Of a stretch of 64,000 nucleotides of DNA, positions 5,601-60,671 are shown piece by piece. A program made the translations under genes and the position numbers. How positions within the stretch are numbered: the first letter of the stretch is position 1; the number at the start of each line of letters is the position of its first letter. Under the pieces are notes generated by a model. That model worked only from the letters and a program-made list of their open reading frames with translations, was not told where the DNA came from and made no database searches. This stretch comes from an uncultured Dehalococcoidales bacterium (GTDB taxonomy: Bacteria; Chloroflexota; Dehalococcoidia; Dehalococcoidales; GCA-2688105): contig CAZCLE010000001.1 of assembly GCA_964499445.1 (NCBI GenBank), forward strand, positions 29,615 to 93,614, given 5' to 3'.

Positions 5601-5693
5601 TGCAGTAATAGATTGGATTGATAATAGAACGATAATAAGATATGATTATTTAGTAAAAGGAGGCAAGCGGCCTCCGCCTTTTACACGGGCTAC

Positions 5694-5738: not shown

Positions 5739-5911
5739 GTAAACATAAGTCACGGTGGTTGTTGGCTGTCGTAGACCAAGCTTGATACTAATCCCCATAC
5801 CCGCACCGAACGGGACAGTATCCAAACGTCCTGCGGGGCAGATTGATTTTCCTTCATGGATACCACACACGTAACTCGCATTCGATTCTAAAATATGGTG
5901 TGGAGACAGAG

Positions 5912-9406: not shown

Positions 9407-9784
9407 CTACTTCCCCAGGACTTGCTCAACCTGACGCAACAATTCATCAACGCCGAAAGGCTTAACCAGATAGCCAGCAGCTCTCATACTGCGAATTTTG
9501 TACTCCCCACCCTCCGGCACCACGGCAGTCATGATAATCACCGGTATTTTCCGAAACTTTGGGGTAGTCTTGAGAACCATGAGAACATCCCAGCCTGACC
9601 TACCCGGCAGCATCAGGTCAAGGAAAATTAAATCGGGGCGTTCGAGCTGTGCCAGCGCTAATCCCTTCTCACCGTCAGCGGCGACAGCCACCTGGTATCC
9701 TCTGGCGGTTAGGTTAGCCTTCACCAGCTTCTGGAGGTTCAGCTCGTCATCAATAACCAGAATCTTAGCCATCCTGCCCCTCAC
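9407..9784 (-). CDS. Single-domain CheY-like response regulator
   Basis: 125 aa. ILVIDDE...DLIFLDLMLPGRSG...YLVKPF. It overlaps the stop of the upstream kinase by 20 nt, so they form an operon. Confidence 0.85.
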   Translation of the reverse strand: MRGRMAKILVIDDELNLQKLVKANLTARGYQVAVAADGEKGLALAQLERPDLIFLDLMLPGRSGWDVLMVLKTTPKFRKIPVIIMTAVVPEGGEYKIRSMRAAGYLVKPFGVDELLRQVEQVLGK

Positions 9785-12700
9785 TTTGGCTCACCGGCAA
9801 GTTTAAGCTAAACTTTGAGCCCTCCCCCAGCTTGCTCTCCACCCAGATTCTCCCACCGTGAGCCTTCATGATGCCCTGACAGATGGATAGCCCCAAGCCA
9901 GTCCCGCTTTTCCGACCGGTAACAACACTCTCAGTCTGATAGAAGCGGTCAAACACCCTGTCCAGAAGCTCAGGAGGGATGCCCTGACCCCTGTCGGTAA
10001 CACTAATAATAATCTGGTCCCCGGCAAGCTGCGCCTCAATTGTGATTGGGCTGTCCTTGCTGGAGAACTTGGTTGCATTTTCCACCATGTTGGTTATGAC
10101 CTGCCCGATGCGCATTTCGTCAACAAATACGGCAGGTAACTCTGCCGGGACTATCACCTCTAGTTGATGGTGCTCGGTGAGGCTAGCCAGCCTATCGCTA
10201 ACTGAGTCCAGTATCTCAGAAATCCGGTAGTCACCTTTCTCTAACTTCAATGCCCCAACATCAAGGCGTGACATATCCAGCAGGTCACTGATTAAGCTGG
10301 TGAGCCGGTCAGTCTCCTGGTCAATAGACTGAAGGAAGTCCCTCTGTTCCTCCTCACTCCACTTGACATCAGGCTGAAGCAGTGTGGTAGCAAAGCCCTT
10401 GATGGAAGCCAGCGGGGTGCGCAGTTCATGAGAAATGTTAGCCACTAGCTCAGACCGCAGCCGGTCAAGCTCCTTGAAGGCTTCTGCCTCCCGTAATTTC
10501 TCCTCCACCCGCTTTAACTCCTCCTCCCCTTCAGCACTAGCCAGAGCGTAGGCGACATCAGTGGCTAGTTCCCGGAACAACTCGTGCTCTTCCTCATCCT
10601 GAGCCATCTCGGGTGAAACAGAAACGCATACTATCCCGTAGACTCTACCTTCGTACTCCAACTGATTCACAAAGCCAACCCCGCCGCCCATAAAGCAGTC
10701 AGCCAGCACACACTCTATATGTTGTCTCTTAACATCATCGCAGGCGGTAAAAGGCGGCTCTTGCGCCAGTACTTCACGGACACACGGCGGGTATTCACCT
10801 CGCTTCATCTGCTCAAGGAGAATTGGGAAACTTTTTTCAGCGCCAGAACCCGCCGCTGAGATGTAGTTTCCATCTTCATCCAGGAGCAGCATCCAGGCAA
10901 TTGAGTAGCCGCGAGCCTCAACCAGGATGTTACAGCTCTGCTGAATCAGGCGCCCTTTATCCTTCTCATGAGCAATAAGCTGATTGATACTCCTGAGCGC
11001 CCTGAGCATATTGGTAAGATGTACGATTCGCGCCTCCGCCTGCTTGCGCTCGGTGATGTCCTCCAGAATTCCATCAAAGTATAGAATCTTGCCGGCATCG
11101 TCTCTCACCACAACTTTTGTACTCAGTACCACTATTTCAGTTCCATCCTTTTTCCTGAAGCGTAGCTCCTTGGCTACCTTCCCTTTACCCGAAGCTATTT
11201 CCTCAAGAACTCGTTCTCTTTCCTCTGGATGCACATACAGGTCAGAAACATTCATCTGCAGCAACTCTTTCCGGCGGTAGCCGGTAATCTTTTCCATAGC
11301 CGGATTTACTTCCAGGAACCTGCCGACGGGTTCTGGTGTGTTTCTAAATACCCCCAATTTAACGTTGCTAACCAGGCTTCTATACTTTTCCTCGCTCCCC
11401 CGTAACGTCTCCTCCGCCCGCTTGCGTTCGGTGATGTCCATTAATGAGGTAATGCTCTTTTTTGTTCTTGGAATAACCTCTACTATCAGAAATATGTCTT
11501 TTATATTTCCTTCCTTATCAAGGAAACGAAACTCATAATGGGTAGGTACCGCTTCTCCCCCTGGTTCCCTCCTCTTGACATGATACTGTTTCATCCGTTC
11601 CAGGTCTTCTTGGTGAACAAATTCCGTCCATCTCTTTTTACCTTCGATTTCCTCTCTGGAATACCCGCTCAATAACTCGAATCGATGGTTAGCTAGAGAG
11701 ATTGTAGTGTCCTCTTCAATAATTGCCATAGCAGTCCCGGTATGTTCAAATGTGGTTCTGTATCTCTGCTCGCTCTCCCGTAGTGCCTCCTCCGCCTGCC
11801 TGCGTTCGGTGATGTCGGTAAAGAATGAAAAGAAGTATTCTAAATCTCCTTTGCTATCGAAAATCGGGGTTGTGAAAACTTCCACCGGAACCAGGGAACC
11901 GTCCTTGCGGATGTATTCTTTCTCAAAGCGCTGTGGTTGTCGGGTACGAATTATTTCCTCCGCCGCCTTGGCCACGACCTCGCGCCACTCAGGAGGCGTG
12001 AGTTCCACATCCCACTTAAGTTCATGCAGCTCCCCCCTACTGTAGCCTAGCAGTTCACAGTAAGCAGTATTGAAAGTCCTTAGCCGTCCATCAGAGTAAC
12101 CTACAGCGAACGGCTGTGAAGAACTCTCTAGCACATTGGCAAGGAACTGCGCGTGCTCCTCAGCCTGCTTGCGCTCGGTGATATCCAGCACGCTCTCCAC
12201 AATGCCTATAATATCGCCGTTTACATCTCGAACCGGATAACCTCGTACAGACCACATTCTCCCGTCGGGGGTAGTCAGTTCCCCTTGCTGGGGTTGGTCG
12301 GTTTCAATGGCCTTGGCAATGGGGCACCCTACGCAAGGCTCACTACGCTGATGCCAGACCTCATAGCAATAGCGCCCCACCAATTGTGCAGGCGGCGTGT
12401 CTACCGATTCACCCGCAGCTCTATTCGCCCATATCAGCCGATGCTCCATATCCTGAAATACCACTAGCTCGCTCATGCTATCGAGAATGGCGGTTTTTTC
12501 CTGTTCAGTCCTTCTCAGCGCCTCCTCCGCCTGCTTGCGCTCGGTAACATTCCTCAGTACCTGAATAGCGCCGATAATCGTACCGTCGCTCTCCTTTAGC
12601 GGGGCTCCAATAGCCTCCCAATAGCTTTCACCCTGAGTGCCTGCCGCGACAGGTCGATAAACAACATCCGTTTCAATTTGCCCGGTCTTCATAGCCTTTA

Positions 12701-14045
12701 TAGTAGGGCAACCTTCGCAGGGTTCATCCCTCAACGCATAGGCTTTATAGCAGGGCTGCCCTACTGCATCAGGACTGCGGGTAAGGGCAGCTTTGTTTGC
12801 CCAGACAATCTTCAAGTTTCTGTCCACCTGTCGTATCACGTCTGGCGAACTGTCAAGCAGTGTCTGCAGTTGTGCCCTACTCTTCCTTAATTCTTCCTCT
12901 ATCTGCTTGCGCTCGGTGATGTCGGTAAATGTTCCCTGATAACCTATTACGTTCCCGCTTTCATCCTTGTCTACAACCGCTGTGATAAGAATGTTGATGA
13001 TACTGCCATCTTTCTTCCGGAAATCGACAGCTAAACCTTTAGCAAAGCCTTGTTGCTCAATTGCTTGGGTAATCCTTTCCCTTTCCTCCGGTTTTTCATA
13101 TAGTTCTAGTATTCTAACCTTTCTTAATTCGTTGCTATTTTCATAGCCAAGAAGCTCCACAGTAGCATCATTGAAGTCTATCCATCTACCATCTTTGGAA
13201 GTAATGAAAACGCAATCCCTCGATGTTCTGAAGAAGGTTCGGTATTTCTCCTCACTCTCCCGCAGCGCCTCCTCCGCCTGCTTGCGCTCGGTGATTTCAG
13301 CACGCAACTGTTCGTTGATTTTTGCAAGCTGGCTAGTCCGTTCCTCAACCCGTATTTCTAATTCGTCGTGAGCCTTTTGCAGCGCCTGTTCCACCTGCCG
13401 GCGTTGCAACGCTACCGATGCCAGCTTTATAAATGTCTCTATAAGGCTTTCTTCTCCCAACTGGGTTCCCTTGCGGGTAAGGATACTGGCACTGCCAAAC
13501 AGTTCTCCTTTCCAGACAAAACCCATAGCATATATGTCGCCCAAATCGAGCAGTTTTTCAATCGCACGGCAGACGGTCCTTGGTATTCTCCTAAAGGAAA
13601 ATTCGTACAAGCCTCCGGGGACCTTCTCTAGCTTACCACTACCGAGGCCGAGCCTCGCTTCGTCGTCTATCATGAGAGACATCCCAACCGGGTGCTTTCC
13701 CAAGATCCTAACAGCACTCCCCATCTTTCCGCCTACCCCCAAGACCGCGCGTACGCAGACATTATCAGTCGCCCCCTCGAACGAATTCACCAAGATAATA
13801 GAGTTGCCAACAAGCTCCCTTAACTGTCTTCCTATGAATTCGTAGATATCCTCTTCAGGCGAAAGCTCAAGAAAACCTATTGATGTCCTGGACAAAAATG
13901 CCAGGTCACGCATATACTTCTCGTCTTCCTTCGTCCGTTTGTCTGTGGTCGCTGAGCCTTCAAATTCAACAACGCGTCGGCGGATTTCCTCCAGTTCACA
14001 TATTAGTTGTTTCTTAGTTTTGCCACTGTTTTCCATTTCCCACAT
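9765..14045 (-). CDS. Large cytoplasmic multi-PAS/GAF sensor histidine kinase
   Basis: 1426 aa. At least 7 PAS-type modules are separated by ITERKQAEE-type linkers. It also has a GAF-like segment, an H-box (ISHELRTPLASIKGF) and HATPase boxes (NMVENATKF, DRGQGI, GTGLGLS). Confidence 0.9.
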   Translation of the reverse strand: MWEMENSGKTKKQLICELEEIRRRVVEFEGSATTDKRTKEDEKYMRDLAFLSRTSIGFLELSPEEDIYEFIGRQLRELVGNSIILVNSFEGATDNVCVRAVLGVGGKMGSAVRILGKHPVGMSLMIDDEARLGLGSGKLEKVPGGLYEFSFRRIPRTVCRAIEKLLDLGDIYAMGFVWKGELFGSASILTRKGTQLGEESLIETFIKLASVALQRRQVEQALQKAHDELEIRVEERTSQLAKINEQLRAEITERKQAEEALRESEEKYRTFFRTSRDCVFITSKDGRWIDFNDATVELLGYENSNELRKVRILELYEKPEERERITQAIEQQGFAKGLAVDFRKKDGSIINILITAVVDKDESGNVIGYQGTFTDITERKQIEEELRKSRAQLQTLLDSSPDVIRQVDRNLKIVWANKAALTRSPDAVGQPCYKAYALRDEPCEGCPTIKAMKTGQIETDVVYRPVAAGTQGESYWEAIGAPLKESDGTIIGAIQVLRNVTERKQAEEALRRTEQEKTAILDSMSELVVFQDMEHRLIWANRAAGESVDTPPAQLVGRYCYEVWHQRSEPCVGCPIAKAIETDQPQQGELTTPDGRMWSVRGYPVRDVNGDIIGIVESVLDITERKQAEEHAQFLANVLESSSQPFAVGYSDGRLRTFNTAYCELLGYSRGELHELKWDVELTPPEWREVVAKAAEEIIRTRQPQRFEKEYIRKDGSLVPVEVFTTPIFDSKGDLEYFFSFFTDITERRQAEEALRESEQRYRTTFEHTGTAMAIIEEDTTISLANHRFELLSGYSREEIEGKKRWTEFVHQEDLERMKQYHVKRREPGGEAVPTHYEFRFLDKEGNIKDIFLIVEVIPRTKKSITSLMDITERKRAEETLRGSEEKYRSLVSNVKLGVFRNTPEPVGRFLEVNPAMEKITGYRRKELLQMNVSDLYVHPEERERVLEEIASGKGKVAKELRFRKKDGTEIVVLSTKVVVRDDAGKILYFDGILEDITERKQAEARIVHLTNMLRALRSINQLIAHEKDKGRLIQQSCNILVEARGYSIAWMLLLDEDGNYISAAGSGAEKSFPILLEQMKRGEYPPCVREVLAQEPPFTACDDVKRQHIECVLADCFMGGGVGFVNQLEYEGRVYGIVCVSVSPEMAQDEEEHELFRELATDVAYALASAEGEEELKRVEEKLREAEAFKELDRLRSELVANISHELRTPLASIKGFATTLLQPDVKWSEEEQRDFLQSIDQETDRLTSLISDLLDMSRLDVGALKLEKGDYRISEILDSVSDRLASLTEHHQLEVIVPAELPAVFVDEMRIGQVITNMVENATKFSSKDSPITIEAQLAGDQIIISVTDRGQGIPPELLDRVFDRFYQTESVVTGRKSGTGLGLSICQGIMKAHGGRIWVESKLGEGSKFSLNLPVSQSEGQDG

Positions 14046-14143
14046 CCTGAAATCAGATTATAATGCCACTTAGCTATCTTGTAGCCCAAAATCGCCGTTT
14101 GTCAATAACTTGCCTTATCAGCTTGAGGATAAGATAACACCGA

Positions 14144-14353
14144 TTAGTTACTTTCAATGACCCGGTTGGCCTCTATCTCAAACCTATTTACTTCATCTTG
14201 AGTGAATAGCCTCCATCCTCTCCTATCCCGGTGTCTAGCTTCTTGGAGGACGCCTTCCTTGAGCCAGCGAAAGAAAGTAGTTCTACTCACTCCGATTATC
14301 CGGTAAACATCGGCAGTTCTATAATAGGTTTGACCATTTACTCTTACCGGCAT
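14144..14353 (-). CDS. Small MerR/excisionase-family HTH protein (HTH_17-like)
   Basis: 69 aa. YYRTADVYRIIGVSRTTFFRWLKEGVL...RGWRLFTQDEV is typical of the excisionase/MerR-like HTH. Confidence 0.6.
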   Translation of the reverse strand: MPVRVNGQTYYRTADVYRIIGVSRTTFFRWLKEGVLQEARHRDRRGWRLFTQDEVNRFEIEANRVIESN

Positions 14354-15108
14354 ACCCAGAGCCCTCCAACATTATTCAGGTATACCCTAATATATTCAGT
14401 CCGCTGAGTAAATGCCCTTTTAGTACCCCCACTAGGCATGACTTTAGTCCTACCTAGTTATGGCTCTGCCTCCTTCCGCGAAAAAGTTACGTACTGTGGG
14501 AAAGGCAAAAGGCTAAGCTGAAGTCTCTTTGTGCCTTTCTAGCCGTTTAAATTTGACTATAGTAGTTATTATTATACCACTTTTGCTACTTTGTCAATAT
14601 TTTATCATTTTTTAGTATCATTTCTAATCTTGTCCTCTACTTTTCTGATAGCCAGTAGGCAATCATGTTTTTTATCTACAGACATACCGGTAACTCCAGC
14701 TGGCAACAAGTTGCACACAACACGCTTTGTTGCTACAATTACTATAGAGGGGGAGAGGTGGGGGTCAAATATTGAGATTAAAGGCTGGTTTAGAAGTTCT
14801 ACCTAATTGCAACCGCAGCTCCGGGCATTCTCAGAATTGCCACCTGCCCGGGAACAGCCTTGCCTTAACACATTATCGTCTTCGCCATTGAGGTGAAAGA
14901 CATGACTACTTCCAGTGAGAGGGACACCGGCAAGATGAAGCCAATGACCCCGGTAGTTACTGATATGGTAACTGATAAGTTGGTAACTTCATCCCGGGTA
15001 TCTGTCCGTTTAGTGGCTATTCCCTTCAATCAGGAGGAAATGGCAACAAAGGCTTACTATAAAACAATTTGCCGGTCTGGATAAAATCTTGCCCAAGGAG
15101 GTAAAAAG

Positions 15109-17346
15109 ATGAAACCGATATTGATAGTAGATGACGAAGCTGTTATGAGAGAGTCTCTCCAAGACTGGCTGACTGACGGCGGTTATCAGGTGGAGACTGC
15201 CGGGGAGGGAGAGGAAGCGTTAGAAGCTATCGCCGAGCGGGACTTTGGTGTTGTCGTCCTTGACCTGAGGTTGCCGGGAAAGGACGGGATTGAGGTATTA
15301 CGAGAGGCTAGAGCGAAAAGACCGCAGCTCAAGGGAATCATTATCACCGCTTATCCTTCAGTGCCGACAGCGGTAGAGGCAATGAAGGAGGGGGCTATCG
15401 ATTATCTACCCAAACCCTTCGACCTTGATGACCTGGAGAAATTAATCCGGGAAACTCTGGGACCGGTGCAGGTAGAGATAAGACCAAAGGCCGCCCCTGA
15501 GACAGCTATAGCCGAACCGCCTGTAGCAGAGGAGGTAACGGAGGCAGAAGAACGGACACGGGTTGAGGAAGTGATTGATGAGGCTACGGGGAAAATATGC
15601 TTGCCTCCTTGTCAGATAGCCTGTCCTATTGGAGAGGACATTCAGCGCACTAATGCTATGATTGCGCTGCTTCCTCTGGATGCCGAGGAGGCTTCCAGCC
15701 AGATAATAAAGATAGGTGATGAAATTTATGAGAAGAACCCTCTATTCACGGTATGCAGCTATATTTGCGGGCTCTGTGAGAAGGAGTGCAATTACAAAGA
15801 CGAGACCGGAGCCATAAGACGAAAGATGCTCAAACGATTCCTCACCGATTTTTACCTTCCATATCTGGAAACCAAGCCCCCATTTCCCCAACCTACCCAG
15901 GAAAAGGTGGCTGTGATTGGTGGGGGACCGGCGGGGTTGATGTGTGCTTACATGCTGAGTAAAAACGGCTATCAAGCGACTATCCTGGAAAGGAGTCCCC
16001 AGTTAGGGGGAGCTTTGAGATACATCCCTCAATATCGTCTTCCCAGAGACATTGTGGATACTACTTTAAATAGTCTGGTAAGGATTGCCCATACTGATGT
16101 TGAATTCGGAGTGAAAATGGGCAACGGTGAAAAAACGTTGGATGACCTCAAGAATGAAGGCTACCGAGCTATATTCATTGCTACCGGCACCCCTTCTCCC
16201 CGGCCGCTCACCTTTGATGGGAAACCAGTAGCCGGAGCCGATCTGGACGGGGTTGCCTTCGGGTTATATCTCCTCATTGATGTGAACCAAGGTAGGGTTT
16301 CTCATCAGCTCCTTCGCCGGCTCTTTGAGGGTAAGAGGGTAATTGTAGTGGGCGGGGGCAATGTGGCCTTTGATGTGGCCAGAACCGCCCGGCGGCTCGG
16401 TGCCGAAGTTTCCCTTGTCTGCCTGGAATGTGAAAATAAATTAGCCAAGGACGGGATTCCAGCCGATGTAGAAGAGATAGAAGGTGCTAAAGAAGAAGGC
16501 ATAAAAATAGACTATTGCCGAGGTGTAGAAGAGATAATCGGAGAGGATGGAAAATTCAACAAAATAAAATGTCCCCGATGCACATCGGTCTTTGATGAAA
16601 GCGGATTCAATCCCAGGTTTGACCGAAATGATGTCATATATCTTGAGGGTGATGTACTGCTTATCACCATAGGGCAGGGTTCGGAGCGGACATTTTTCCA
16701 GCAGGAGGGCTTGCTGGATGAGAGAGGCAGGACTGATATTGACCGGCTTACTCTTATGAGCAATCGCCAAGAAGGAGTTTTCGTTGGCGGCGATGTCAGG
16801 CGGATAGGTCTCGCCGCAAACGCAATGAGAGACGGAATGATAGCCGCCGAGTCTATAGACCGCTACCTGAGGGGTGAGGACCTGCAAGCAGGCAGAGAAA
16901 AGGAGTATGAAGATGCTGCCATTCCCAAGCTTATGGATTACAAGCCTCAGCCTGAGTCGGAATGGGTACTGCTGGAAGAGCGGTTAAACTTTGAACTGTT
17001 TGAAAAAGGTTTCACCCTGGAAGAGGCGGTGAAAGAGGCCAGAAGGTGTCTGTGCTGTGGCCCATGTAAAAGCTGTAAAGCCTGTGTCGCCCTGGAACTT
17101 CAGCCTGAGATACCACCAATTGAAGTCAACCAAGATATATGTAGTGGGTGTGGAATTTGTGTCGCGGTATGTAGCTATGATGCCGCCAAACTGGTAAAAT
17201 CTAGTAACGGGCTGGTATCAGTTATAGATGACATTAAGTGTAAGCGATGCGGTGTATGTAGTGCTGCCTGCCCTATTGATGCCATTACCATTAAGCAGTT
17301 TACCACTGAGCAGATTATGGCTGAAATCGAGGGGATGCTGGTATAA
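15109..17346 (+). CDS. Receiver domain fused to a GltD/NfnB/SudA-like NAD(P)H-FAD oxidoreductase, with a C-terminal 2x[4Fe-4S] ferredoxin
   Basis: 745 aa. REC is ILIVDDE...VVVLDLRLPGKDG...YLPKPF. An N-terminal Fe-S motif (CLPPCQIACPIGEDI) is typical of glutamate-synthase small-chain-like proteins. Dinucleotide folds are VAVIGGGPAGL and VIVVGGGNVAFD. C-terminal motifs are CLCCGPCKSCKAC, CSGCGICVAVC and CKRCGVCSAACP. Confidence 0.85.
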   Translation: MKPILIVDDEAVMRESLQDWLTDGGYQVETAGEGEEALEAIAERDFGVVVLDLRLPGKDGIEVLREARAKRPQLKGIIITAYPSVPTAVEAMKEGAIDYLPKPFDLDDLEKLIRETLGPVQVEIRPKAAPETAIAEPPVAEEVTEAEERTRVEEVIDEATGKICLPPCQIACPIGEDIQRTNAMIALLPLDAEEASSQIIKIGDEIYEKNPLFTVCSYICGLCEKECNYKDETGAIRRKMLKRFLTDFYLPYLETKPPFPQPTQEKVAVIGGGPAGLMCAYMLSKNGYQATILERSPQLGGALRYIPQYRLPRDIVDTTLNSLVRIAHTDVEFGVKMGNGEKTLDDLKNEGYRAIFIATGTPSPRPLTFDGKPVAGADLDGVAFGLYLLIDVNQGRVSHQLLRRLFEGKRVIVVGGGNVAFDVARTARRLGAEVSLVCLECENKLAKDGIPADVEEIEGAKEEGIKIDYCRGVEEIIGEDGKFNKIKCPRCTSVFDESGFNPRFDRNDVIYLEGDVLLITIGQGSERTFFQQEGLLDERGRTDIDRLTLMSNRQEGVFVGGDVRRIGLAANAMRDGMIAAESIDRYLRGEDLQAGREKEYEDAAIPKLMDYKPQPESEWVLLEERLNFELFEKGFTLEEAVKEARRCLCCGPCKSCKACVALELQPEIPPIEVNQDICSGCGICVAVCSYDAAKLVKSSNGLVSVIDDIKCKRCGVCSAACPIDAITIKQFTTEQIMAEIEGMLV

Positions 17347-17375
17347 GCTTTAAACCAAAGGAAGTCGGGTTAACC

Positions 17376-18473
17376 ATGGAACAAATCCAGTCCTTGCAGA
17401 TGCGGCAGGAGCTAACACAAATCCTCCGGATGGAACAGGCTAACCTGCTGGAGATGCCTGAGGATGAGTTTAACAGGCTAATCACCGAGATGGAGCAGGG
17501 TCCCCTTTTCCGAAGGCTATACCAGAGAGAAAAGCTAATCTGCCATCAGAGATTTCCCAGAACTGATATTTCCTCTGGTTTTTATCAACTCAAAGAAGAG
17601 ATAGCAGCCGATACAGGCTCTGTGGATGTTGAATCTCTTCTGCTGAACAAAGAGTATATCGTCCGTCAAATACAGAAACTAGGGCTGGAGAAATTCAAAC
17701 AGTATTTCCTGTTCTCCGAACCAGCGATGACCCTGGAACAAATCGCCAGAGAGTGCGACCTGGAGGTCGCCGAGGTTCAGACGATAAACAACCTTATTGA
17801 TGAATTCTCTATTATGAGTGAGTTTTATCATCCCTCTAATGTCACCTCAGGCGACATTCACTATTCCAAGGTTGCCTCGGTGGAGAAGGATGAGAAGGGT
17901 TTTATTATCGGCTATTTTTCAGCTTCTTTCGCCCGAGGTCGGTATGCGATTAATTATGAAAGATTTGAGGAGTTAAGAACGGCAGGTGCGTTCACCGAAA
18001 CTGAAATCAAGGAAGCCAGACAGTTATTCAAGAGGCTGGAACTAATCAATAGCCGTAAGGATACACTAACTCAGATACTGCAAAATATTATTGACAAGCA
18101 GGCACTCTACCTAGAGTCTGGTGATTTGAAGTCTCTTTTATCCTTCAGTCAAAAGGAGCTAGCCGAAAAAATTGGACTGGCTCCGAGCTCAGTCAGTCGT
18201 GCTATAAGAAGCAAAAGTATAGACACCCCCTGGGGTAGAGAAGTCCCTCTAAAATACTTCTTCCCCAGGCCAAAGAGGTTCAGGAAGGAACTGCTCAGGC
18301 AGCTCCTTGAAACCGATAATGGACTTTCCTCAGACGAGGCAATACGGACCAAGCTCTGGGAGAAATTTGGCGTGGCCATCTCCCGGCGCTCGGTAGCCAA
18401 CTTGAGGAAGGAACTTAAGTTTCCTGCAGCCCACGGAAAACGGCATCCTATCCAGAGGAGGCAGACAAGATGA
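17376..18473 (+). CDS. Short, divergent RNA polymerase sigma-54 (RpoN)-like factor
   Basis: 365 aa. The Gln/Leu-rich N-terminus LQMRQELTQILRMEQANLLEMPEDEFNRLITEMEQGPLF resembles region I. ELAEKIGLAPSSVSRAIRSKSIDTPWGREVPLKYFF resembles the sigma-54 HTH plus the (E)LKYFF segment. ISRRSVANLRKEL resembles the RpoN box ARRTVAKYRE. It is shorter than typical RpoN, and the middle core-binding part was not confidently recognised. Confidence 0.6.
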   Translation: MEQIQSLQMRQELTQILRMEQANLLEMPEDEFNRLITEMEQGPLFRRLYQREKLICHQRFPRTDISSGFYQLKEEIAADTGSVDVESLLLNKEYIVRQIQKLGLEKFKQYFLFSEPAMTLEQIARECDLEVAEVQTINNLIDEFSIMSEFYHPSNVTSGDIHYSKVASVEKDEKGFIIGYFSASFARGRYAINYERFEELRTAGAFTETEIKEARQLFKRLELINSRKDTLTQILQNIIDKQALYLESGDLKSLLSFSQKELAEKIGLAPSSVSRAIRSKSIDTPWGREVPLKYFFPRPKRFRKELLRQLLETDNGLSSDEAIRTKLWEKFGVAISRRSVANLRKELKFPAAHGKRHPIQRRQTR

Positions 18474-20428
18474 GTGTTGTTTACACCGAGCGAGAAAAGT
18501 GCAAAGGATGCTATACCTGCATACGTAACTGCCCAGCTAAGGCAATCAGGGTAAGAGAGGGCTTGGCTGAAGTGATAAAGGAACGCTGTATCGCCTGCGG
18601 CATCTGCGTCCAGATCTGCATGGCAAAAGCAAAGCTAGCAGAGAGCGACACAGGAATAGTTTGGCAACTACTGGGAGGGGAGGAACCGGTAATTGCTATG
18701 CTTTCATCTCCATTTCCCGCCGCCTTTCCCGAAGTTCGCCCGAGGCGGTTGGTAACCGCCCTGAAAAAACTGGGGTTTAGTGAGGTGATGGAGGATTCCT
18801 TCGGTGCCGAGCTCGTCTGCCGTGAATATGCCCGCCTTATAAAGGAAAACAGTGATAAACCTATCCTCTCATCTACCTGTCCCGCAGTAGTGTCCTACAT
18901 TGAGAAGCACTATCCCCAGCTCATCGATAATCTGGCACCCACTGCTTCCCCCATGATAGCTATGGGTAGAGTGATTAAACGGCAGTATAATCCGCAGGCT
19001 AAGGTGGTCTTCATTGGTCCTTGCGTGGCTAAGAAAGCTGAGGCTAAGGATGAGAATGTTGCCGGGGTGGTGGACGCCGTCCTGACCTTTGCTGAGATGA
19101 AGGAGATGTTCGCCGCTAAAGGTATCAATCCCGAAACTGAGGAAGAAGGTCAATTCTCGGGGCCTAAGCCCAACCTGGGTCGCCTGTTCGCCATAACCGG
19201 GGGACTGCTCAAGATAGCCGGACTTTCCGATGACATCATAGCCAATGAAATTATCAATGCCTGTGGCCGGGACTATACGCTGAATATCGTTCGGGAGTTT
19301 GCCGAAGGCAATATCACTGCCAGGTTCATCAGCCTATGTTTCTGTGAAGGCTGTATTGACGGGCCGGTCATTGATAATGACCTAAGCATTTTTAAACGAA
19401 GGGAAATAATCAGCAATTATACTCTAAGCCAGTCAGACCCGACTCAGACCGAGAGGGACATAAAGGAGTATGCTAGCATTGACCTCAACCGCAAATTTAC
19501 CCACCGAGGTGTCGGCCTGCCGACGCCCAATGAGGAAGATGTTCAACGGGTTTTAAAGAAAATTGGCAGGGTGGACCCCCACTACCGAATGAATTGTGGT
19601 GCTTGTGGCTATAGCGGTTGCCGAGAGCTGGCAGTCGCTGTCTGTCAGGGTCTAGCTGAGACTGAAATGTGCTGGCCGTACGTGCTTGAGAAGTTGAGGA
19701 CTACTCAAGAAGAGTTAATCCAAGCTGAGAAACTGACCTCTCTGGGTCAGATGGCAGCCTCTATTGCTCATGAGGTTAATAATCCTCTGGCTGGCGTCCT
19801 CGTCTATACCCAATTGTTGGCTAAAAAGATAGCTGGTGACAAATTCTCCAAAGAGGTTGCTCTTGACTACCTATCGAAAATGGAACCGGAACTCACTCGC
19901 AGCACCAGGTTAATCCGAGGCCTTCTGGATTTCGCCCGACAGTCGCCCCCAACCCTCAGGGAGGTGAACCTCAACGAGGTCATTAACCGAGCCCTTGACC
20001 TCGCGGCTCATTCAGCTAAGCTACAGCATATCCAGATAATAAAAGAGCTCAACCCCTCCTTGCCTGAGCCCATGGCTGACTTTGACCAGCTTCAACAGGT
20101 CTGTGCCAACCTTATTATGAATGCTATCCAGGCAATGTCTGAAGGCGGCATGCTAACCCTCCGCACCTCAGTCGCTAACGATAGTCAGCTCAAGATAGAG
20201 GTTCAGGATACCGGTTGTGGCATTTCTCAGGAAAATATGCGCAAGCTGTTCACCCCCTTCTTCACCACTAAGGGAAAGGGAAAGGGGGTAGGTCTGGGTC
20301 TGGCGGTGGCCTATGGAATTATCCAGCGCCATCACGGCAAGATAGAAGTGCAAAGTAAGGAGGGAGAGGGTACTACCTTCACCATCCGCCTACCCCGGCA
20401 CCACGGGAAAAGGCCAGAAGATAAATAG
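18470..20428 (+). CDS. Sensor histidine kinase with an N-terminal 2x[4Fe-4S] ferredoxin, a [FeFe]-hydrogenase large-subunit-like (H-domain-like) domain and a putative Fe-S (CxxC...C...C) domain
   Basis: 652 aa. CKGCYTCIRNCP and CIACGICVQIC form the ferredoxin part. Hydrogenase-like motifs are SSTCPAVV (vs TSCCP), GPCVAKKAE (vs MPCxxKxxE) and LCFCEGCIDGP (vs MxCxxGCxxG). MNCGACGYSGCRELAVAVCQG...C follows. The transmitter has H-box SIAHEVNNPL, NLIMNAIQA, DTGCGI and GVGLGLA. Confidence 0.8.
   Translation: MSVVYTEREKCKGCYTCIRNCPAKAIRVREGLAEVIKERCIACGICVQICMAKAKLAESDTGIVWQLLGGEEPVIAMLSSPFPAAFPEVRPRRLVTALKKLGFSEVMEDSFGAELVCREYARLIKENSDKPILSSTCPAVVSYIEKHYPQLIDNLAPTASPMIAMGRVIKRQYNPQAKVVFIGPCVAKKAEAKDENVAGVVDAVLTFAEMKEMFAAKGINPETEEEGQFSGPKPNLGRLFAITGGLLKIAGLSDDIIANEIINACGRDYTLNIVREFAEGNITARFISLCFCEGCIDGPVIDNDLSIFKRREIISNYTLSQSDPTQTERDIKEYASIDLNRKFTHRGVGLPTPNEEDVQRVLKKIGRVDPHYRMNCGACGYSGCRELAVAVCQGLAETEMCWPYVLEKLRTTQEELIQAEKLTSLGQMAASIAHEVNNPLAGVLVYTQLLAKKIAGDKFSKEVALDYLSKMEPELTRSTRLIRGLLDFARQSPPTLREVNLNEVINRALDLAAHSAKLQHIQIIKELNPSLPEPMADFDQLQQVCANLIMNAIQAMSEGGMLTLRTSVANDSQLKIEVQDTGCGISQENMRKLFTPFFTTKGKGKGVGLGLAVAYGIIQRHHGKIEVQSKEGEGTTFTIRLPRHHGKRPEDK
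19724..20332 (+). repeat. Copy 1 of a 609-bp duplicated transmitter module (DHp + CA)
   Basis: It reads base-for-base the same as 20997-21605 (offset 1273) where I compared the lines. The encoded 200+ aa are identical in the ORF track. One mismatch sits just upstream (19723 A vs 20996 G), and similarity decays after 20332/21605. Confidence 0.85.
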
Positions 20429-20444: not shown

Positions 20445-21701
20445 ATGGAAGAGACTATAACAACCAAACCTACCCTAAAAAGCACCCTGCAGCGCTGGGA
20501 AGAAAGCATAGTAACCAGAGTTGCGGAATGGTTGCCACAGAGCGACACCAGGGGTGTGCGAAGCCCTCACTTGTGGATAATCACGGCTCTAATGGCACTT
20601 GGCACGGTCATTTACTATATAGACCAGACCCCCCTGGTTAGCGTGCCACCATTTAATTACAGCTTTTTTACTAGTGTCCATGACCTGCATCGAACATTAT
20701 TTTTCATTCCTATAATCTACGCGGCGCTGGTATTCAGGGTTCGGGGAAGCCTAATCGCTTCCTTCGTTTTTCTCGGCGTGGTGTTGCCACGTGCCCTGCT
20801 ATTCTCCCCCTATCCCGACCCACTACTCAGGCCACTTCTCCTTGTCGCCTTGGCCACTTTTGTCACTCTGTTAATAGCGACACAGCTTAATCGAATTGAA
20901 AGGGAAAGAAAGGCTCGCGCTGAACTGAGCACAGCCTACCAGGAGCTTAGCGAATATGACCAGCGGCTGAGAGAAAGCCAGGAGCAACTAATCCAGGCTG
21001 AGAAACTGACCTCTCTGGGTCAGATGGCAGCCTCTATTGCTCATGAGGTTAATAATCCTCTGGCTGGCGTCCTCGTCTATACCCAATTGTTGGCTAAAAA
21101 GATAGCTGGTGACAAATTCTCCAAAGAGGTTGCTCTTGACTACCTATCGAAAATGGAACCGGAACTCACTCGCAGCACCAGGTTAATCCGAGGCCTTCTG
21201 GATTTCGCCCGACAGTCGCCCCCAACCCTCAGGGAGGTGAACCTCAACGAGGTCATTAACCGAGCCCTTGACCTCGCGGCTCATTCAGCTAAGCTACAGC
21301 ATATCCAGATAATAAAAGAGCTCAACCCCTCCTTGCCTGAGCCCATGGCTGACTTTGACCAGCTTCAACAGGTCTGTGCCAACCTTATTATGAATGCTAT
21401 CCAGGCAATGTCTGAAGGCGGCATGCTAACCCTCCGCACCTCAGTCGCTAACGATAGTCAGCTCAAGATAGAGGTTCAGGATACCGGTTGTGGCATTTCT
21501 CAGGAAAATATGCGCAAGCTGTTCACCCCCTTCTTCACCACTAAGGGAAAGGGAAAGGGGGTAGGTCTGGGTCTGGCGGTGGCCTATGGAATTATCCAGC
21601 GCCATAAAGGTAGAATAGGAGTGCAAAGTAAGGAGGGGGAGGGTACTACCTTTACCATCTATCTACCATTGCACCATGAAGAACATGAAGAAAAAGGCTA
21701 A
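20445..21701 (+). CDS. Membrane-bound sensor histidine kinase (about 4 TM segments), whose transmitter is identical to that of the preceding kinase
   Basis: 418 aa. Hydrophobic segments are HLWIITALMALGTVIYYI, LFFIPIIYAALVF, LIASFVFLGVVL and LLLVALATFVTLLIA. A coiled coil follows, then the same LIQAEKLTSLGQMAASIAHEVNNPL...GLAVAYGIIQRH block as ORF 18470-20428. Confidence 0.85.
   Translation: MEETITTKPTLKSTLQRWEESIVTRVAEWLPQSDTRGVRSPHLWIITALMALGTVIYYIDQTPLVSVPPFNYSFFTSVHDLHRTLFFIPIIYAALVFRVRGSLIASFVFLGVVLPRALLFSPYPDPLLRPLLLVALATFVTLLIATQLNRIERERKARAELSTAYQELSEYDQRLRESQEQLIQAEKLTSLGQMAASIAHEVNNPLAGVLVYTQLLAKKIAGDKFSKEVALDYLSKMEPELTRSTRLIRGLLDFARQSPPTLREVNLNEVINRALDLAAHSAKLQHIQIIKELNPSLPEPMADFDQLQQVCANLIMNAIQAMSEGGMLTLRTSVANDSQLKIEVQDTGCGISQENMRKLFTPFFTTKGKGKGVGLGLAVAYGIIQRHKGRIGVQSKEGEGTTFTIYLPLHHEEHEEKG
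20997..21605 (+). repeat. Copy 2 of the 609-bp duplicated transmitter module
   Basis: See 19724-20332. Confidence 0.85.
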
Positions 21702-23046
21702 AATCCTAGTGGTTGATGATGAAGTCATTATCCGCGAGTCGCTCCGTGACTGGCTCAGCGATGTCGGGCACCTAGTGCTTACCGCAGAGAACGGTCCCCA
21801 GGCTCTGGAGATTATCCAAAAGGAGAAACCAGCCGTCGCTATTGTTGATTTGGTAATGCCCGGGATGGACGGGATTGAACTACTAAAGAGAGCCAGGGAA
21901 ATATCGCCCAGCATTGAGGTGGTCATCATCACTGCCTATGGCAGTATCCCCACGGCTATTACTGCCATGAGGGAAGGCGCCTATGACTACATCGAGAAGC
22001 CCTTCTGCCCGGAAAAGGTAGAGCTGTTGATTGAGAAACTGGTGGAACATCAACGGCTAATCGAGGAGAACATTTCCCTGCACCAGAAATTAGAGGAGCG
22101 CTACCAATTCCAGAATATCATTGCCAAGAGCCCCAAGATGCAGCAGGTAATCGAGGTAATTAAGGTCGTCGCCAAGAGTAATGCTACGGTGTTGATTGTT
22201 GGTGAGAGTGGTACCGGTAAGGAACTTGTCGCCCGAGCCATCCACTCCCAGAGCTACCGTAAGGATAAGCCGTTTATCGCCGTCAGTTGCGCTGCTTTGC
22301 CGGAGACTCTCCTTGAGAGTGAGCTATTCGGACATGAGAAGGGCTCCTTTACCGGGGCTCATGCTCAACGGAGGGGGAAATTTGAAATCGCTAACAAAGG
22401 CTCCCTCTTCCTGGATGAGATTGGTGAGATGAGTGCCAATATCCAGGTTCACCTGCTCCGAGTCTTGGAGGAGAAGGAATTCACCAGAGTTGGCGGCAAT
22501 GAGCTAGTTAAGGTCGATGTAAGGGTCATCTCAGCGACCAATAAGGACATAAAAAGAGCCATAGCCAATGAGCAGTTTCGGGAGGACCTTTACTACCGAC
22601 TCAACGTGGTTACTATTGAATTGCCACCGTTGAGAGAGAGGAAGGAGGATATTCTCCTCTTAGCCCAGCACTTCCTAAAAAAGTTTGCTGTGGAAAATCA
22701 AAAGGAGATTACCAGCTTCTCTGCCGAGGCTACTGATTTTCTTTTGAAATATGAGTGGCCGGGTAATGTCCGAGAACTGGAAAATGCTGTTGAAAGGGCG
22801 GTCATCTTAGCCAAAAATTCTTATATTGAGATTACTGACCTGCCCCAGGAAAGCTTAACATTGGCTCACTCATCTCCATCAGGGAAAAGCCTGGAAGAAA
22901 TCGAGAAAAACCATATCCTGAATATACTCAACGAAACCGGTGGAAACTATAGTAAAGCGGCTAGAATCATGGGGATTTCCAGAATGACGCTTTACAACAA
23001 GGTTAGGGCATATGGATTAGATGTAAATAAAATAGACAGTAACTGA
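21676..23046 (+). CDS. NtrC-family sigma-54-dependent response regulator (REC + AAA+ + Fis-type HTH)
   Basis: 456 aa. ILVVDDE...VAIVDLVMPGMDG is the receiver. Walker A is GESGTGKE, and ESELFGHEKGSFTGA is the GAFTGA-type sigma-54 contact loop. LFLDEIGEM and the C-terminal GNYSKAARIMGISRMTLYNK HTH are also present. It overlaps the upstream kinase by 26 nt. Confidence 0.9.
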   Translation: MKNMKKKAKILVVDDEVIIRESLRDWLSDVGHLVLTAENGPQALEIIQKEKPAVAIVDLVMPGMDGIELLKRAREISPSIEVVIITAYGSIPTAITAMREGAYDYIEKPFCPEKVELLIEKLVEHQRLIEENISLHQKLEERYQFQNIIAKSPKMQQVIEVIKVVAKSNATVLIVGESGTGKELVARAIHSQSYRKDKPFIAVSCAALPETLLESELFGHEKGSFTGAHAQRRGKFEIANKGSLFLDEIGEMSANIQVHLLRVLEEKEFTRVGGNELVKVDVRVISATNKDIKRAIANEQFREDLYYRLNVVTIELPPLRERKEDILLLAQHFLKKFAVENQKEITSFSAEATDFLLKYEWPGNVRELENAVERAVILAKNSYIEITDLPQESLTLAHSSPSGKSLEEIEKNHILNILNETGGNYSKAARIMGISRMTLYNKVRAYGLDVNKIDSN

Positions 23047-23089: not shown

Positions 23090-23125
23090 AGGCTATCCTG
23101 ACCATTCAAGATAGCCTTTTCTTTT
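23090..23125 (+). terminator. Hairpin plus T-run after the NtrC-type gene (alternatively a palindromic protein-binding site)
   Basis: AGGCTATC (23090-23097), a 12-nt loop, GATAGCCT (23110-23117), then TTTTCTTTT. Confidence 0.4.
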
Positions 23126-23140
23126 GGCAAGAAAATTGCA
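23125..23140 (+). promoter_or_regulatory. Sigma-54 (-24/-12) promoter candidate
   Basis: TGGCAAGAAAATTGCA, with GG at 23126-23127 and GC at 23138-23139. This is the canonical 12-nt register of TGGCAC-N5-TTGCA. The predicted TSS near 23150 leaves a leader of about 65 nt with AGGAGGAGG before ATG 23217. Confidence 0.5.
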
Positions 23141-23216
23141 TCTAAATAGGGTGGAGGTGATAGAAATGGAAAAGCAGGCAGTCCTAAAGGAAGAGAAAAT
23201 AGGAGGAGGTGGAAAG

Positions 23217-24245
23217 ATGAAACCGATATTGATAGTAGAGGATGAAGTCATTATGAGAGAGTCTCTCCGAGATTGGCTGACTGACAGCGGTTATCACGTG
23301 GAGACTGCTGAGGAAGGAGAGGAAGCGTTAAAAACTATTGCCGAGCGGGACTTTGGTGTTGTCATCCTTGACCTGAGGTTGCCGGGAAAGGACGGGATTG
23401 AGGTACTAAGAGAGGCCAAGGAGAAAAGACCGCAGCTTAAGGGAATCATTATCACCGCTTATCCTTCGGTGCCGACAGCGGTAGAGGCGATGAAGGAGGG
23501 GGCTATTGATTATCTACCCAAACCCTTCGACCTTGATGACCTGGAAAAATTAATCCAGGGCACTCTGGGACCGGTTCAGGTAGAGATAAGACCAAAGGCT
23601 GTTACTGAAGAAGCTGTGGCTGAACCACCTGTAGTAGAGGAGGCTAAGGTTGAGGAGGTCATAGCCGTAGCTCCGGAGGAAATCCCGGTTCACCTCAAGC
23701 AAGGCAAGGCTCACTTTGAGGCTTGTAACTACCGGGAGGCTCTTAAGGAGTTTGAGGCTGTCATCGCCGTGGCTCCGGGCAGCATTGAGACCCGTGTCTG
23801 GATACGAAAGACCCATGAAGCACTAACCAAGCCCAAGGTTGAGGGGGTAGTTGAAGGGGAAGCGGCTCCTGTCGCTGAGGAAGCCAAGCCAAAGGAGTGC
23901 CTGTGGATGAAGCTGGGGATGGTTTCTTACCGCATCTGCACCAATGACTACAACTGTCTCACCTGCGAGTTTGACCAGACGATGCAGGAGAAGATGGCTA
24001 GTGGTGAAGCTCCAGAGCTTGATGCCGCACTGGAAAGATTTAAGGCACTACCTGGAAATCAGAGGCTCTGCCGCTATGCCCTTAAGGGCGATGTCTCATA
24101 CCGGATTTGCACCCGCCTCTTCCAGTGTGACACCTGCGAGTTTGGTCAAATGATGGAGGATGCCCTCCAGCAGAAACTGGCTAAGCTGGCGACACGACGG
24201 GAGGCCCTGCTCAAAAAGGAGCAAAAAGCTGAAGCCAAAGCGTAA
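23217..24245 (+). CDS. Response regulator: a receiver, a helical (TPR-like) linker, and two copies of a C-X12-C-X5-C-X2-C motif
   Basis: The ORF track starts at 23124. I prefer ATG 23217 (MKPILIVEDE, AGGAGGAGG upstream), which parallels ORF 15109. The receiver is about 90% identical to that of ORF 15109. C-terminal motifs are CLWMKLGMVSYRICTNDYNCLTCEF and CRYALKGDVSYRICTRLFQCDTCEF. Confidence 0.8.
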   Translation: MKPILIVEDEVIMRESLRDWLTDSGYHVETAEEGEEALKTIAERDFGVVILDLRLPGKDGIEVLREAKEKRPQLKGIIITAYPSVPTAVEAMKEGAIDYLPKPFDLDDLEKLIQGTLGPVQVEIRPKAVTEEAVAEPPVVEEAKVEEVIAVAPEEIPVHLKQGKAHFEACNYREALKEFEAVIAVAPGSIETRVWIRKTHEALTKPKVEGVVEGEAAPVAEEAKPKECLWMKLGMVSYRICTNDYNCLTCEFDQTMQEKMASGEAPELDAALERFKALPGNQRLCRYALKGDVSYRICTRLFQCDTCEFGQMMEDALQQKLAKLATRREALLKKEQKAEAKA

Positions 24246-60667: not shown

Positions 60668-60671
60668 TTGT

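Follow-up and report, generated by a model that had tools for sequence, protein, structure and literature searches.

Two-component receivers are known to control transcription factors and a small number of signaling enzymes. Response regulators that carry an enzymatic output on a flexible linker include the methylesterase CheB, the GGDEF proteins PleD and WspR, the HD-GYP protein RpfG and regulators of the PP2C type. In the HoxBC-HoxJ-HoxA and HupUV-HupT-HupR systems, a hydrogenase-like sensor, a histidine kinase and an NtrC-type sigma-54 activator control energy hydrogenases. In this study, we analyzed a 64,000-nucleotide stretch of DNA (hereafter the window) from an uncultured Dehalococcoidales bacterium (contig CAZCLE010000001.1, positions 29,615 to 93,614), in which the gene at 15109..17346 encodes a receiver joined to a flavin/iron-sulfur (Fe-S) protein. 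Dehalococcoidia abound in subsurface sediments, and H2 is a central energy currency there. Judged from its sequence relatives, the protein is, on balance, probably a flavin/Fe-S subunit, linked to nicotinamide adenine dinucleotide (NAD(H)), of a cytoplasmic Mvh-type [NiFe]-hydrogenase and/or an HdrL-type complex, which has gained a phospho-receiver and is under kinase control.

In NfnABC, the GltD-like module passes electrons from NADPH via a non-bifurcating flavin adenine dinucleotide (FAD) into a chain of clusters (PMC12018979). HdrL is an HdrA with a GltD part (PMC2702500), and type III HdrA is an HdrA with a GltD insert (PMC12054007). In the HydDB classification, the regulatory, H2-sensing [NiFe] hydrogenases form group 2b, and [FeFe] group C1 is described as 'histidine kinase-linked (putative)' (PMC5037454). 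The motif Cx2Cx4Cx16C is a signature of the putative sensory M2e/M2f [FeFe] hydrogenases (PMC8163306). A full-text literature search returned no description of a receiver-flavin/Fe-S fusion or of such a response-regulator output, which does not prove absence from the literature.

A receiver fused to a flavin/Fe-S protein

The open reading frame (ORF) starts with ATG and, as listed and translated, runs through 745 amino acids (aa) with no internal stop. From the N- to the C-terminus, the protein comprises a CheY-type receiver (REC), a disordered acidic linker, a GltD/NfnB-like Fe-S/FAD/NAD(P) core, a Cys patch and a 2x[4Fe-4S] domain, and is referred to here as REC-GltD. The identical protein is deposited at NCBI as TRZ52108.1 under the title 'MAG: FAD-dependent oxidoreductase [Dehalococcoidia bacterium]' (MAG, metagenome-assembled genome), an annotation that does not mention the receiver. 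The gene and its parts are given below. Related loci, such as L006, carry L numbers; 87 of them were obtained from a GTDB genome scan and contig look-ups, and their ORFs were classified against a reference set.

15109..17346, + strand: REC-GltD/NfnB-like-HdrA-tail protein, 745 aa; ratio of nonsynonymous to synonymous substitution rates (dN/dS) 0.16 against the L006 ortholog
15095..15101, + strand: Shine-Dalgarno sequence (SD) AAGGAGG, 7 nucleotides (nt) ahead of the ATG; also the opening bases of a duplicated REC cassette
15109..15462, + strand: receiver domain, aa 1-118, Pfam 1.1e-29, with D8, D9, D52 (phospho-acceptor), T80, Y99 and K102
15463..15558, + strand: acidic Pro/Glu/Ala linker PETAIAEPPVAEEVTEAEE, aa 119-150, predicted disordered, column identity 0.64, dN/dS 0.39
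15559..15873, + strand: N-terminal Fe-S domain, Fer4_20-like, aa 151-255, aligning with the Fe-S domain of NfnA, StnC and NfnL
15874..16908, + strand: FAD and NAD(P) dinucleotide-binding domains, aa 256-600, with GGGPAG at 271-276 and GGGNVA at 415-420
17047..17085, + strand: Cys patch C647-x2-C650-x2-C653-x2-C656-x2-C659, invariant in 81 sequences, candidate extra Fe-S site
17104..17346, + strand: C-terminal 2x[4Fe-4S] ferredoxin domain of the HdrA type, aa 666-745, matching HdrA 5odc_A

Pfam matches were found for Response_reg (aa 4-113), Pyr_redox_2 (aa 266-576, 3e-34), Fer4/Fer4_7 (aa 678-727) and, barely above its cutoff, Fer4_20 (aa 142-248, 1.6e-6, 28.4 bits versus 25.8). The receiver scored 103.2 bits against the curated PF00072 cutoff of 30.2. 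The closest curated NCBIfam model was NF009410 (PRK12771, 'NAD(P)-binding protein'), whose score of 331 bits is below the membership threshold of 516.

A search of 5.8 billion proteins (JGI, ENA, NCBI and Logan), clustered at 90% identity, identified the same full-length architecture in more than 110 independent clusters, whose identities to the 745-aa protein ranged from 65 to 85%. All named homologs with the fusion were from Dehalococcoidales, Dehalococcoidia or Chloroflexota. The recurrence of the architecture in so many independent clusters rules out a frameshift or a mis-assembly as the origin of the fusion. An earlier interpretation made from the letters of the window alone (the sequence-only reading) had described a complete receiver, an acidic linker, a GltD-like flavoprotein and a Cys-rich patch followed by 2x[4Fe-4S], and had suggested a survey of this architecture across databases; an undetected frameshift or stop, or the lack of the acceptor Asp or other conserved receiver residues, would have spoken against it. 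All of these modules were recovered by Pfam, fold match and alignment, neither an interruption of the ORF nor a loss of receiver residues was found, and the architecture proved to be recurrent, with its named carriers within Chloroflexota only.

When the window protein was aligned with 115 full-length homologs, D9, D52, T80, Y99 and K102 of the receiver were conserved in 97-98% of the 116 sequences and D8 in 84%. With the acidic pair, the acceptor Asp, the Thr, the Lys and the aromatic switch residue all conserved, a pseudo-receiver is ruled out. The AlphaFold2 model displayed a (beta-alpha)5 fold of five strands and five helices at aa 4-117, with block means of the predicted local distance difference test (pLDDT) of about 75-92, and the PDB matches of the domain included the receivers of FixJ, NtrC1 and NtrC. 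By these residues and this fold, the domain is a genuine CheY-like phospho-receiver whose phospho-chemistry residues are intact; phosphorylation itself is predicted. The mean pLDDT of the whole model was 70.8, the receiver and the FAD domain being confident, and pLDDT fell below 50 at aa 120-171, so that the linker region is predicted to be disordered. In the comparison with the L006 ortholog, which is 84% identical, the receiver, core and tail had dN/dS values of 0.18, 0.15 and 0.14, respectively, and the linker one of 0.39. The receiver, core and tail are all under purifying selection (omega 0.14-0.18).

Flavoprotein core and HdrA-type tail

The best fold matches of the core were NfnA (9n5u and 9bov_A) and StnC (8oh5_C), followed by Xfn, NfnL/NfnB, dihydropyrimidine dehydrogenase (DPD) and GltD; the Foldseek probability was 1.00 to NfnA, NfnL, DPD and GltD. 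NfnA 9n5u matched aa ~137-600 with 9e-61 by sequence and 1e-31 by Foldseek. Of the N-terminal Fe-S domain, six Cys (C168, C172, C216, C220, C223 and C227) were invariant, and C164 was replaced by Tyr in 77% of homologs. Some Fe-S ligands of NfnA and NfnL are residues other than Cys (PMC12018979). The GGGPAG and GGGNVA motifs were invariant among the aligned homologs (81 sequences).

In the alignment with NfnA, StnC, NfnL and NfnB, the Arg pair that confers NADPH specificity in the GltD/NfnB(L) family was absent from the 745-aa protein. In place of the Y-R-R that follows beta-2 in these NADPH-dependent relatives, it possesses an invariant C438-L439-E440 and an insertion of 4-5 residues. As a usual rule for dinucleotide folds, the residues after beta-2 of the nucleotide fold decide between NAD(H) and NADP(H). 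Because C-L-E stands where the NADPH-dependent relatives have Y-R-R, NAD(H) is more likely than NADP(H) to be the nucleotide of REC-GltD.

The two CxxCxxCxxxC motifs of the C-terminal tail were also well conserved: seven of their eight Cys were invariant, and in the 116-sequence alignment C714 was conserved at 91% and C721 at 99%. Residues 650-744 matched residues 553-650 of HdrA 5odc_A (E 4e-18), collinear to the C-terminus, and over the core cluster motifs generic polyferredoxins scored equally well. The tail shared 52-58% identity with the C-terminal ends of the HdrA-like proteins whose genes adjoin those of the homologs in L006 and L007. Outside aa 650-744, no match to HdrA was found, and the flavin core matched GltD/NfnB instead. 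By these matches, the 745-aa protein is not an HdrA. Moreover, no gene for an NfnA/NfnS small-subunit partner (FAD plus [2Fe-2S], PyrK-like) was adjacent in the window or in any related locus.

Three other loci (L024 9971-12157, L026 12290-14467 and L028 5744-7927) encode proteins of ~725 aa in which a GltD-like core is fused at its C-terminus to an MvhD-like FlpD plus Fer4, with no HdrA-type tail. This natural fusion in some Dehalococcoidia supports a physical contact between a GltD core and an MvhD-type protein.

Gene neighborhoods and ancestry

REC-less orthologs of ~600 aa, which are 65-78% identical to aa ~140-745 of REC-GltD, are encoded by the third gene of a Dehalococcoidia [NiFe]-hydrogenase operon. 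The order in this operon is [NiFe] small subunit, [NiFe] large subunit, GltD/HdrA-tail protein, NifU-like, HycI, FlpD/MvhD-like, FlpD plus Fer4, DUF5981 and HypFCDEAB. In L001/2, L004/5, L012, L014 and L037, the third-gene slot is held by the REC-fused form. In L011, REC-GltD is part of a super-operon in which the genes for HdrC, HdrB, an HdrL-like protein (1110 aa), REC-GltD, MvhD, the [NiFe] small and large subunits and HycI are followed by those for a sigma-54-like factor, a Hyd-like kinase, NtrC and REC-X, a second receiver protein. Part of it is visible in L006, where the REC-GltD ortholog is followed by mvhD, the [NiFe] small and large subunit genes and hycI. Altogether, the REC-fused gene was co-encoded with mvhD and the [NiFe] small and large subunit genes in seven loci (L006, L011, L001, L004, L012, L014 and L037). 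The [NiFe] large subunits of the related loci are of the MvhA type (5odc_F, 8e-123; 7t2r_D, 8e-120).

In a neighbor-joining tree of the core domain, the REC-fused forms were one clade nested within the REC-less forms, and because they all group in this way, the tree points to a single REC fusion event in a gene of a hydrogenase operon, with later relocation. Five REC-fused loci are structural hydrogenase/Hdr operons with no signaling gene within 10 kb. In the window, L008, L013 and L036, the REC-fused gene is found among signaling genes only. In genomes that lack the fusion (L043, L051, L053, L056 and L063), the signaling cassette adjoins HdrL and Mvh genes. As the sequence-only reading had proposed to look for, the fusion co-occurs with the cassette of the hydrogenase-like kinase, which adjoins seven of the 13 loci with a REC-fused gene and not one of the 22 with a REC-less gene (Fisher p = 2.6e-4).

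The hydrogenase genes have left traces in the window:

17343..17360, + strand: deletion scar, consisting of the opening 18 nt of mvhD, which overlap the stop codon; ATAAGCTTTAAACCAAAG in the window versus ATGAGCTTTGAACCAAAG in L006
14830..14997, + strand: relic of a HycI-like maturation protease with an in-frame stop; 39% identity over 56 aa, E 1e-6, in tblastn with L006 HycI

The DNA of the window and that of L006 were collinear at 80-86% identity, except for L006 3258-6814, which has no counterpart in the window and holds mvhD, the [NiFe] small and large subunit genes, hycI and a hypC fragment. Past the scar, ~3.5 kb (mvhD, [NiFe] small and large, hycI) is missing and the gene for the sigma-54-like factor comes next. 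Upstream of the REC-GltD gene, the translated HycI relic ..ALP*HIIVFAIEVKDMTTSSE.. aligns with ..ALPHQITIFAIEVEDVTTFSE.. of L006. By this comparison, mvhD, the two [NiFe] subunit genes and hycI were deleted from the window locus. A hydrogenase-subunit operon around the REC-fused gene was thus found in seven relatives, and in the window its genes have been deleted, so that the window protein needs a partner encoded elsewhere or works alone. The upstream 1 kb (14050-15100) contains an excisionase/MerR-like helix-turn-helix ORF (- strand, ~14140-14360), an AT-rich stretch that has several sigma-70-like sites, and the HycI relic, and looks like a rearrangement junction.

After such a deletion, the REC-GltD gene might be a decaying remnant of no further use in this organism. 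It is flanked by the deletion scar and the HycI pseudogene, and the region upstream of it contains an excisionase-like ORF in the opposite orientation and lacks a clear conserved promoter. Its 745 codons are intact, however, with a strong SD and a dN/dS (0.16) like that of its neighbors, every cofactor and receiver residue is in place, and three other genomes retain the gene in a hydrogenase-free signaling context. Decay is hardly credible against this background.

The same neighborhoods could also be those of a stand-alone, phosphorylation-gated oxidoreductase that transfers electrons from NAD(P)H to ferredoxin or another acceptor, through which the kinases would tune the cytoplasmic NAD(H)/ferredoxin balance with no hydrogenase involved. 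All of the modules for transfer from NAD(P)H via FAD to Fe-S clusters are present, the genes of the window, L008, L013 and L036 sit among signaling genes with no hydrogenase nearby, and purifying selection has persisted after the adjoining mvh genes were lost. Nevertheless, the protein descends from hydrogenase/Hdr operons and is still frequently encoded in them, its tail is of the HdrA type and found beside MvhD genes, and the solved relatives that combine this module with extra clusters (NfnA and StnC) are subunits of larger complexes. We regard a stand-alone enzyme as unlikely.

Signaling proteins and the twin receiver

Downstream of REC-GltD, the window encodes a signaling cassette with the following features, the last of which, at the start of REC-GltD itself, is the counterpart of the start of its final gene:

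17376..18473, + strand: compact sigma-54-like factor, 365 aa; Pfam Sigma54_DBD 7.7e-21; TIGR02395 2e-25, below cutoff
18470..20428, + strand: [FeFe]-hydrogenase-like sensor histidine kinase; Pfam 2x[4Fe-4S], H-domain, HisKA and HATPase; Cx2Cx4Cx16C motif
20445..21701, + strand: second kinase, with hydrophobic N-terminal segments suggesting membrane spans; transmitter module a copy of that of kinase 18470-20428
21676..23046, + strand: NtrC-type sigma-54 activator (REC, AAA+ and HTH_8 by Pfam), receiver 53% identical to that of REC-GltD
23125..23140, + strand: sigma-54-type -24/-12 element TGGCAAGAAAATTGCA, directly downstream of ntrC, position conserved in relatives
23217..24245, + strand: REC-X, with a twin receiver, an acidic linker, a TPR-like stretch and two Cys-rich repeats of no known family
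15096..15535, + strand: duplicated cassette (SD, REC and first part of the linker), 440 nt, 89.8% identical to 23204-23643, gapless

The sigma-54-like factor possesses a region-I-like N-terminus, a DNA-binding domain and an RpoN-box-like ISRRSVANLRKEL within 365 aa, versus ~480 in E. coli. Its gene is kept inside the signaling cassette in at least 12 related loci. A signaling cassette with its own sigma-54 is unusual.

The kinase at 18470-20428 contains a single Cys in L1 (STC137P, no proton-relay Cys), GPC185, C290/292/295 and the Cx2Cx4Cx16C motif. Its domain combination corresponds to HydDB group C1, as far as domain matches go, and it is a probable H2 or redox sensor. The transmitter tract of 688 nt that it shares with the second kinase (19716-20403 versus 20989-21676) was 97.8% identical at the nucleotide level and 94% at the amino acid level, with a synonymous divergence (dS) of 0.11. 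The tract appears to stem from a recent duplication or gene conversion event that provides two inputs with one specificity; because the transmitter modules are 94% identical, both kinases are expected to have the same partner specificity.

The TGGCAAGAAAATTGCA element precedes REC-X in the window, L006, L011, L043, L053, L063 and L042, and precedes REC-GltD in L008, L009 and L036. Ahead of the sigma-54-like gene, of hdrC and of the [NiFe] small-subunit gene, none was detected. Across the window, near-consensus sigma-54 sites were no more numerous than the chance count, and the site at 23125 is the only one backed by conservation. Upstream of 15109, the only candidate sigma-54 promoter, TGGCAACAAGTTGCA near 14699, has the wrong spacing and was rejected.

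The likely start of REC-X is ATG 23217; the mechanical ORF begins at TTG 23124. The receivers of REC-GltD and REC-X were 89% identical over 124 aa. The twin that the sequence-only reading had described as near-identical is therefore real, at about 90% rather than nearly 100% identity. Between the two copies in the window, dS was 0.22, versus 0.49-0.81 for orthologs of the window and L006. Because the dS of the copies is well below that of the orthologs, the two receivers were homogenized after the split from L006. In the receiver tree, the REC-GltD and REC-X types were intermixed, and they paired by genome in the window, L008 (99% identical) and L009/L013. A recent exchange, as had been proposed, is supported by the dS; a single recent copying event is replaced by homogenization that recurs across genomes. 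Recurrent homogenization would be expected if the two receivers have to remain compatible with a shared set of kinases. The Cys-rich repeats of REC-X, ..CLWMKLGMVSYRICTNDYNCLTCEFDQTM.. and ..CRYALKGDVSYRICTRLFQCDTCEFGQMM.., had no Pfam match, and this output may be a metal-binding domain of no recognized kind.

These relationships raise the possibility that the flavoprotein is an input. The redox state of its FAD and Fe-S clusters, as a readout of NAD(H) or ferredoxin, would change how its own receiver is phosphorylated or dephosphorylated, and the protein would then serve as a redox-dependent phosphate sink in competition with NtrC and REC-X for the shared kinases. REC-GltD is embedded in the signaling cassette in at least four genomes, sometimes right behind an NtrC-dependent sigma-54 promoter; three receiver proteins share kinases with near-identical transmitter modules; and the receiver of REC-GltD is kept matched to that of REC-X. 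However, a long disordered linker is a poor route for a redox signal to reach the receiver, and the five REC-fused loci in structural hydrogenase/Hdr operons have no signaling gene within 10 kb, which together make an input role quite improbable.

Other receiver-bearing redox proteins

In the Dehalococcoidales MAG locus L055, an 801-aa REC-Fer4_22-FAD_binding_6-NAD_binding_1-DHODB_Fe-S protein is encoded immediately ahead of the small and large subunits of a distinct [NiFe] hydrogenase, and the same locus encodes a Pyr_redox_2 plus Pyr_redox_dim flavoprotein with a C-terminal receiver. The genes concerned are at 64-1815, 2325-4730 and 4622-6753; both receiver-fused flavoproteins adjoin a hydrogenase-like kinase, and their receivers are of the same type as those of the window. 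The Desulfobacterales MAG loci L064 (11963-15376) and L065 (12209-15622) encode a 1137-aa HdrA-like protein with a receiver inserted at aa 192-301, flanked by MvhD-like, HdrB/C-like, kinase and NtrC-like genes. Since Desulfobacterales encode one as well, receiver-tagged Hdr-type flavoproteins are not restricted to Chloroflexota.

Among the best 150 representatives at 50% identity, only two others, P0155 and P0173, had the receiver as their best-matched stretch, in a protein that exceeds 1,100 aa and was matched elsewhere as well. The cluster of REC-GltD itself is apparently represented by a receiver-less protein, so that fusions are not countable among these representatives. Receiver-tagged redox proteins are a real but rare theme.

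Proposed function and mechanism

The sequence-only reading had taken the output of the receiver to be an enzyme. A GltD/NfnB-type flavin/Fe-S module on a conserved phospho-receiver is indeed present; a free-standing NAD(P)H:ferredoxin enzyme is not its best interpretation, because ancestry and synteny place the flavoprotein in Mvh-type [NiFe]-hydrogenase and HdrL-type complexes and its tail is of the HdrA type. In the Mvh-Hdr structure of Wagner et al. from 2017, the C-terminal ferredoxin domain of HdrA is reportedly where MvhD delivers electrons. As a subunit of such a complex, REC-GltD would be part of an electron path between H2 and NAD(H) that runs through the [NiFe] site, the small-subunit clusters, the [2Fe-2S] cluster of MvhD, the C-terminal ferredoxin domain, FAD and NAD(H). 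The N-terminal clusters of the flavoprotein may form a second branch to ferredoxin or Hdr.

D52 would be phosphorylated by both kinases of the operon, the [FeFe]-hydrogenase-like one and the apparently membrane-anchored one, and the same two kinases would also serve NtrC, acting on transcription via the sigma-54 of the cassette, and REC-X. Phosphorylation of D52 would most likely cause dimerization of the receiver, or its docking or undocking, and in this way switch the assembly of the flavoprotein or its electron flow. Dimerization or docking is favored over rigid allosteric coupling because the receiver hangs on a disordered linker of ~30-50 residues.

A further possibility, for which we see only a slim chance, is that the receiver also serves as a docking handle. 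By binding the dimerization and histidine phosphotransfer (DHp) helices of the [FeFe]-hydrogenase-like kinase, it would bring the ferredoxin tail beside the N-terminal [4Fe-4S] clusters of the kinase, which could then compare H2 with NAD(H). If so, the sensory hydrogenase would be poised against the NAD(H) pool, and the kinase, as a thermodynamic comparator, would report H2/NAD(H) disequilibrium rather than H2 concentration alone. There would also be simultaneous feedback on transcription, through NtrC and the cassette sigma-54, and on hydrogenase/Hdr electron flow.

Several points weigh against REC-GltD as a hydrogenase or Hdr subunit under kinase control. With the exception of the HycI relic, no Mvh, Hyp or Hdr genes were found in the 64-kb window, where tblastn gave no hits to mvhD or the [NiFe] subunit genes, or in the ~5-10 kb past each of its ends. 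Similar to the window, L008, L013 and L036 contain no hydrogenase or Hdr gene within 10 kb of the REC-fused gene, and a hydrogenase-independent role in this organism is for that reason possible. Pfam scans of the larger ORFs of the window found nothing resembling the maturases HydE, HydF and HydG, so that a true H-cluster in the hydrogenase-like domain of the kinase is hypothetical. The core-domain tree has no bootstrap support, and the AlphaFold model is only moderate (pTM, the predicted template modeling score, 0.55) and, the linker being disordered, reveals nothing of a contact between receiver and enzyme. Electron entry via the HdrA-type tail is extrapolated from the Mvh-Hdr structure, and phosphotransfer, cofactor content, nucleotide specificity and hydrogenase association are predicted for all members of the family.

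Other genes of the window

On the - strand, 9765-14045 encodes a 1426-aa kinase with six PAS domains and one GAF domain, followed by a single-domain receiver (9407-9784) and an OmpR-type regulator (8696-9400). This two-component system is separate from the REC-GltD operon and divergent to it. A trio of NuoE-like (178 aa), NuoF-like (637 aa) and HoxU/NuoG-N-terminal-like (224 aa) proteins is encoded at 59993-63118 (- strand), followed by adenine deaminase. The trio is an orphan diaphorase-type module ~43 kb from the REC-GltD gene, with no hydrogenase or formate dehydrogenase catalytic gene alongside. A low-GC island (36% versus ~50%) at 52001-54000 encodes a DNA methylase (52243-53580) and, on the - strand, a 420-aa ORF without Pfam matches (53540-54802), and may be a mobile restriction-modification element. 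A Z1-domain protein is encoded at 3438-5600.

Comparison with known systems

Similar to the GltD-like modules of NfnABC and StnABC (NfnA, 9n5u/9bov; StnC, 8oh5) and to NfnL/NfnB of NfnSL (5jca and 4ylf), REC-GltD possesses a predicted N-terminal Fe-S domain, an FAD fold and a second dinucleotide fold. Different from NfnABC and NfnSL, to which it is only ~30% identical, it is not encoded next to an NfnB/C (NuoF/E-like) or NfnS partner in the window. Moreover, its family has the C-L-E with the insertion, a different Cys patch and the HdrA-type tail, and the solved relatives have no receiver.

The C-terminal 95 aa of REC-GltD match the ferredoxin domain of HdrA, and the genes of its relatives adjoin mvhD, [NiFe] and hdrB/C genes. 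The 1110-aa neighbor in L007 also combines HdrA and GltD parts, like HdrL and type III HdrA. Unlike HdrA, however, the flavin domain of REC-GltD is of the GltD/NfnB type and not of the bifurcating thioredoxin-reductase type, and the HdrA N-terminal domain and inserted ferredoxin domain are both lacking.

Similar to CheB, PleD, WspR and RpfG, REC-GltD links a canonical receiver to a catalytic domain. Its output differs from theirs: it is a redox protein with several cofactors and probably belongs to a larger complex as a subunit. A phosphorylation switch on a hydrogenase-type flavoprotein, encoded beside a hydrogenase-like kinase, suggests that H2 electron flow may be controlled directly at the protein level. 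If the receiver gates the flavoprotein, the cell could switch electron flow between H2 and NAD(H) within seconds. All components are soluble proteins and open to in vitro testing.

The cassette of the window follows the same logic of sensor, kinase and NtrC as the HoxBC and HupUV systems. Different from those systems, its sensor is of the [FeFe] type and fused to the kinase, it has its own compact sigma-54, and its receivers are also found on redox proteins, which opens a possible post-translational branch. To our knowledge, no kinase-fused member of [FeFe] group C1/HydS has been characterized. The kinase of the window shares with this group the N-terminal 2x[4Fe-4S], an H-domain with a single Cys in L1 and the Cx2Cx4Cx16C motif; the likeness is that of the partner kinase rather than of REC-GltD itself. 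For the putative sensory [FeFe]-hydrogenases of group C1, which have lacked them so far, the locus offers explicit candidate targets beside a sensor-fused kinase: two or more receiver-tagged proteins, as well as an NtrC that comes with a sigma-54 and a promoter of its own.

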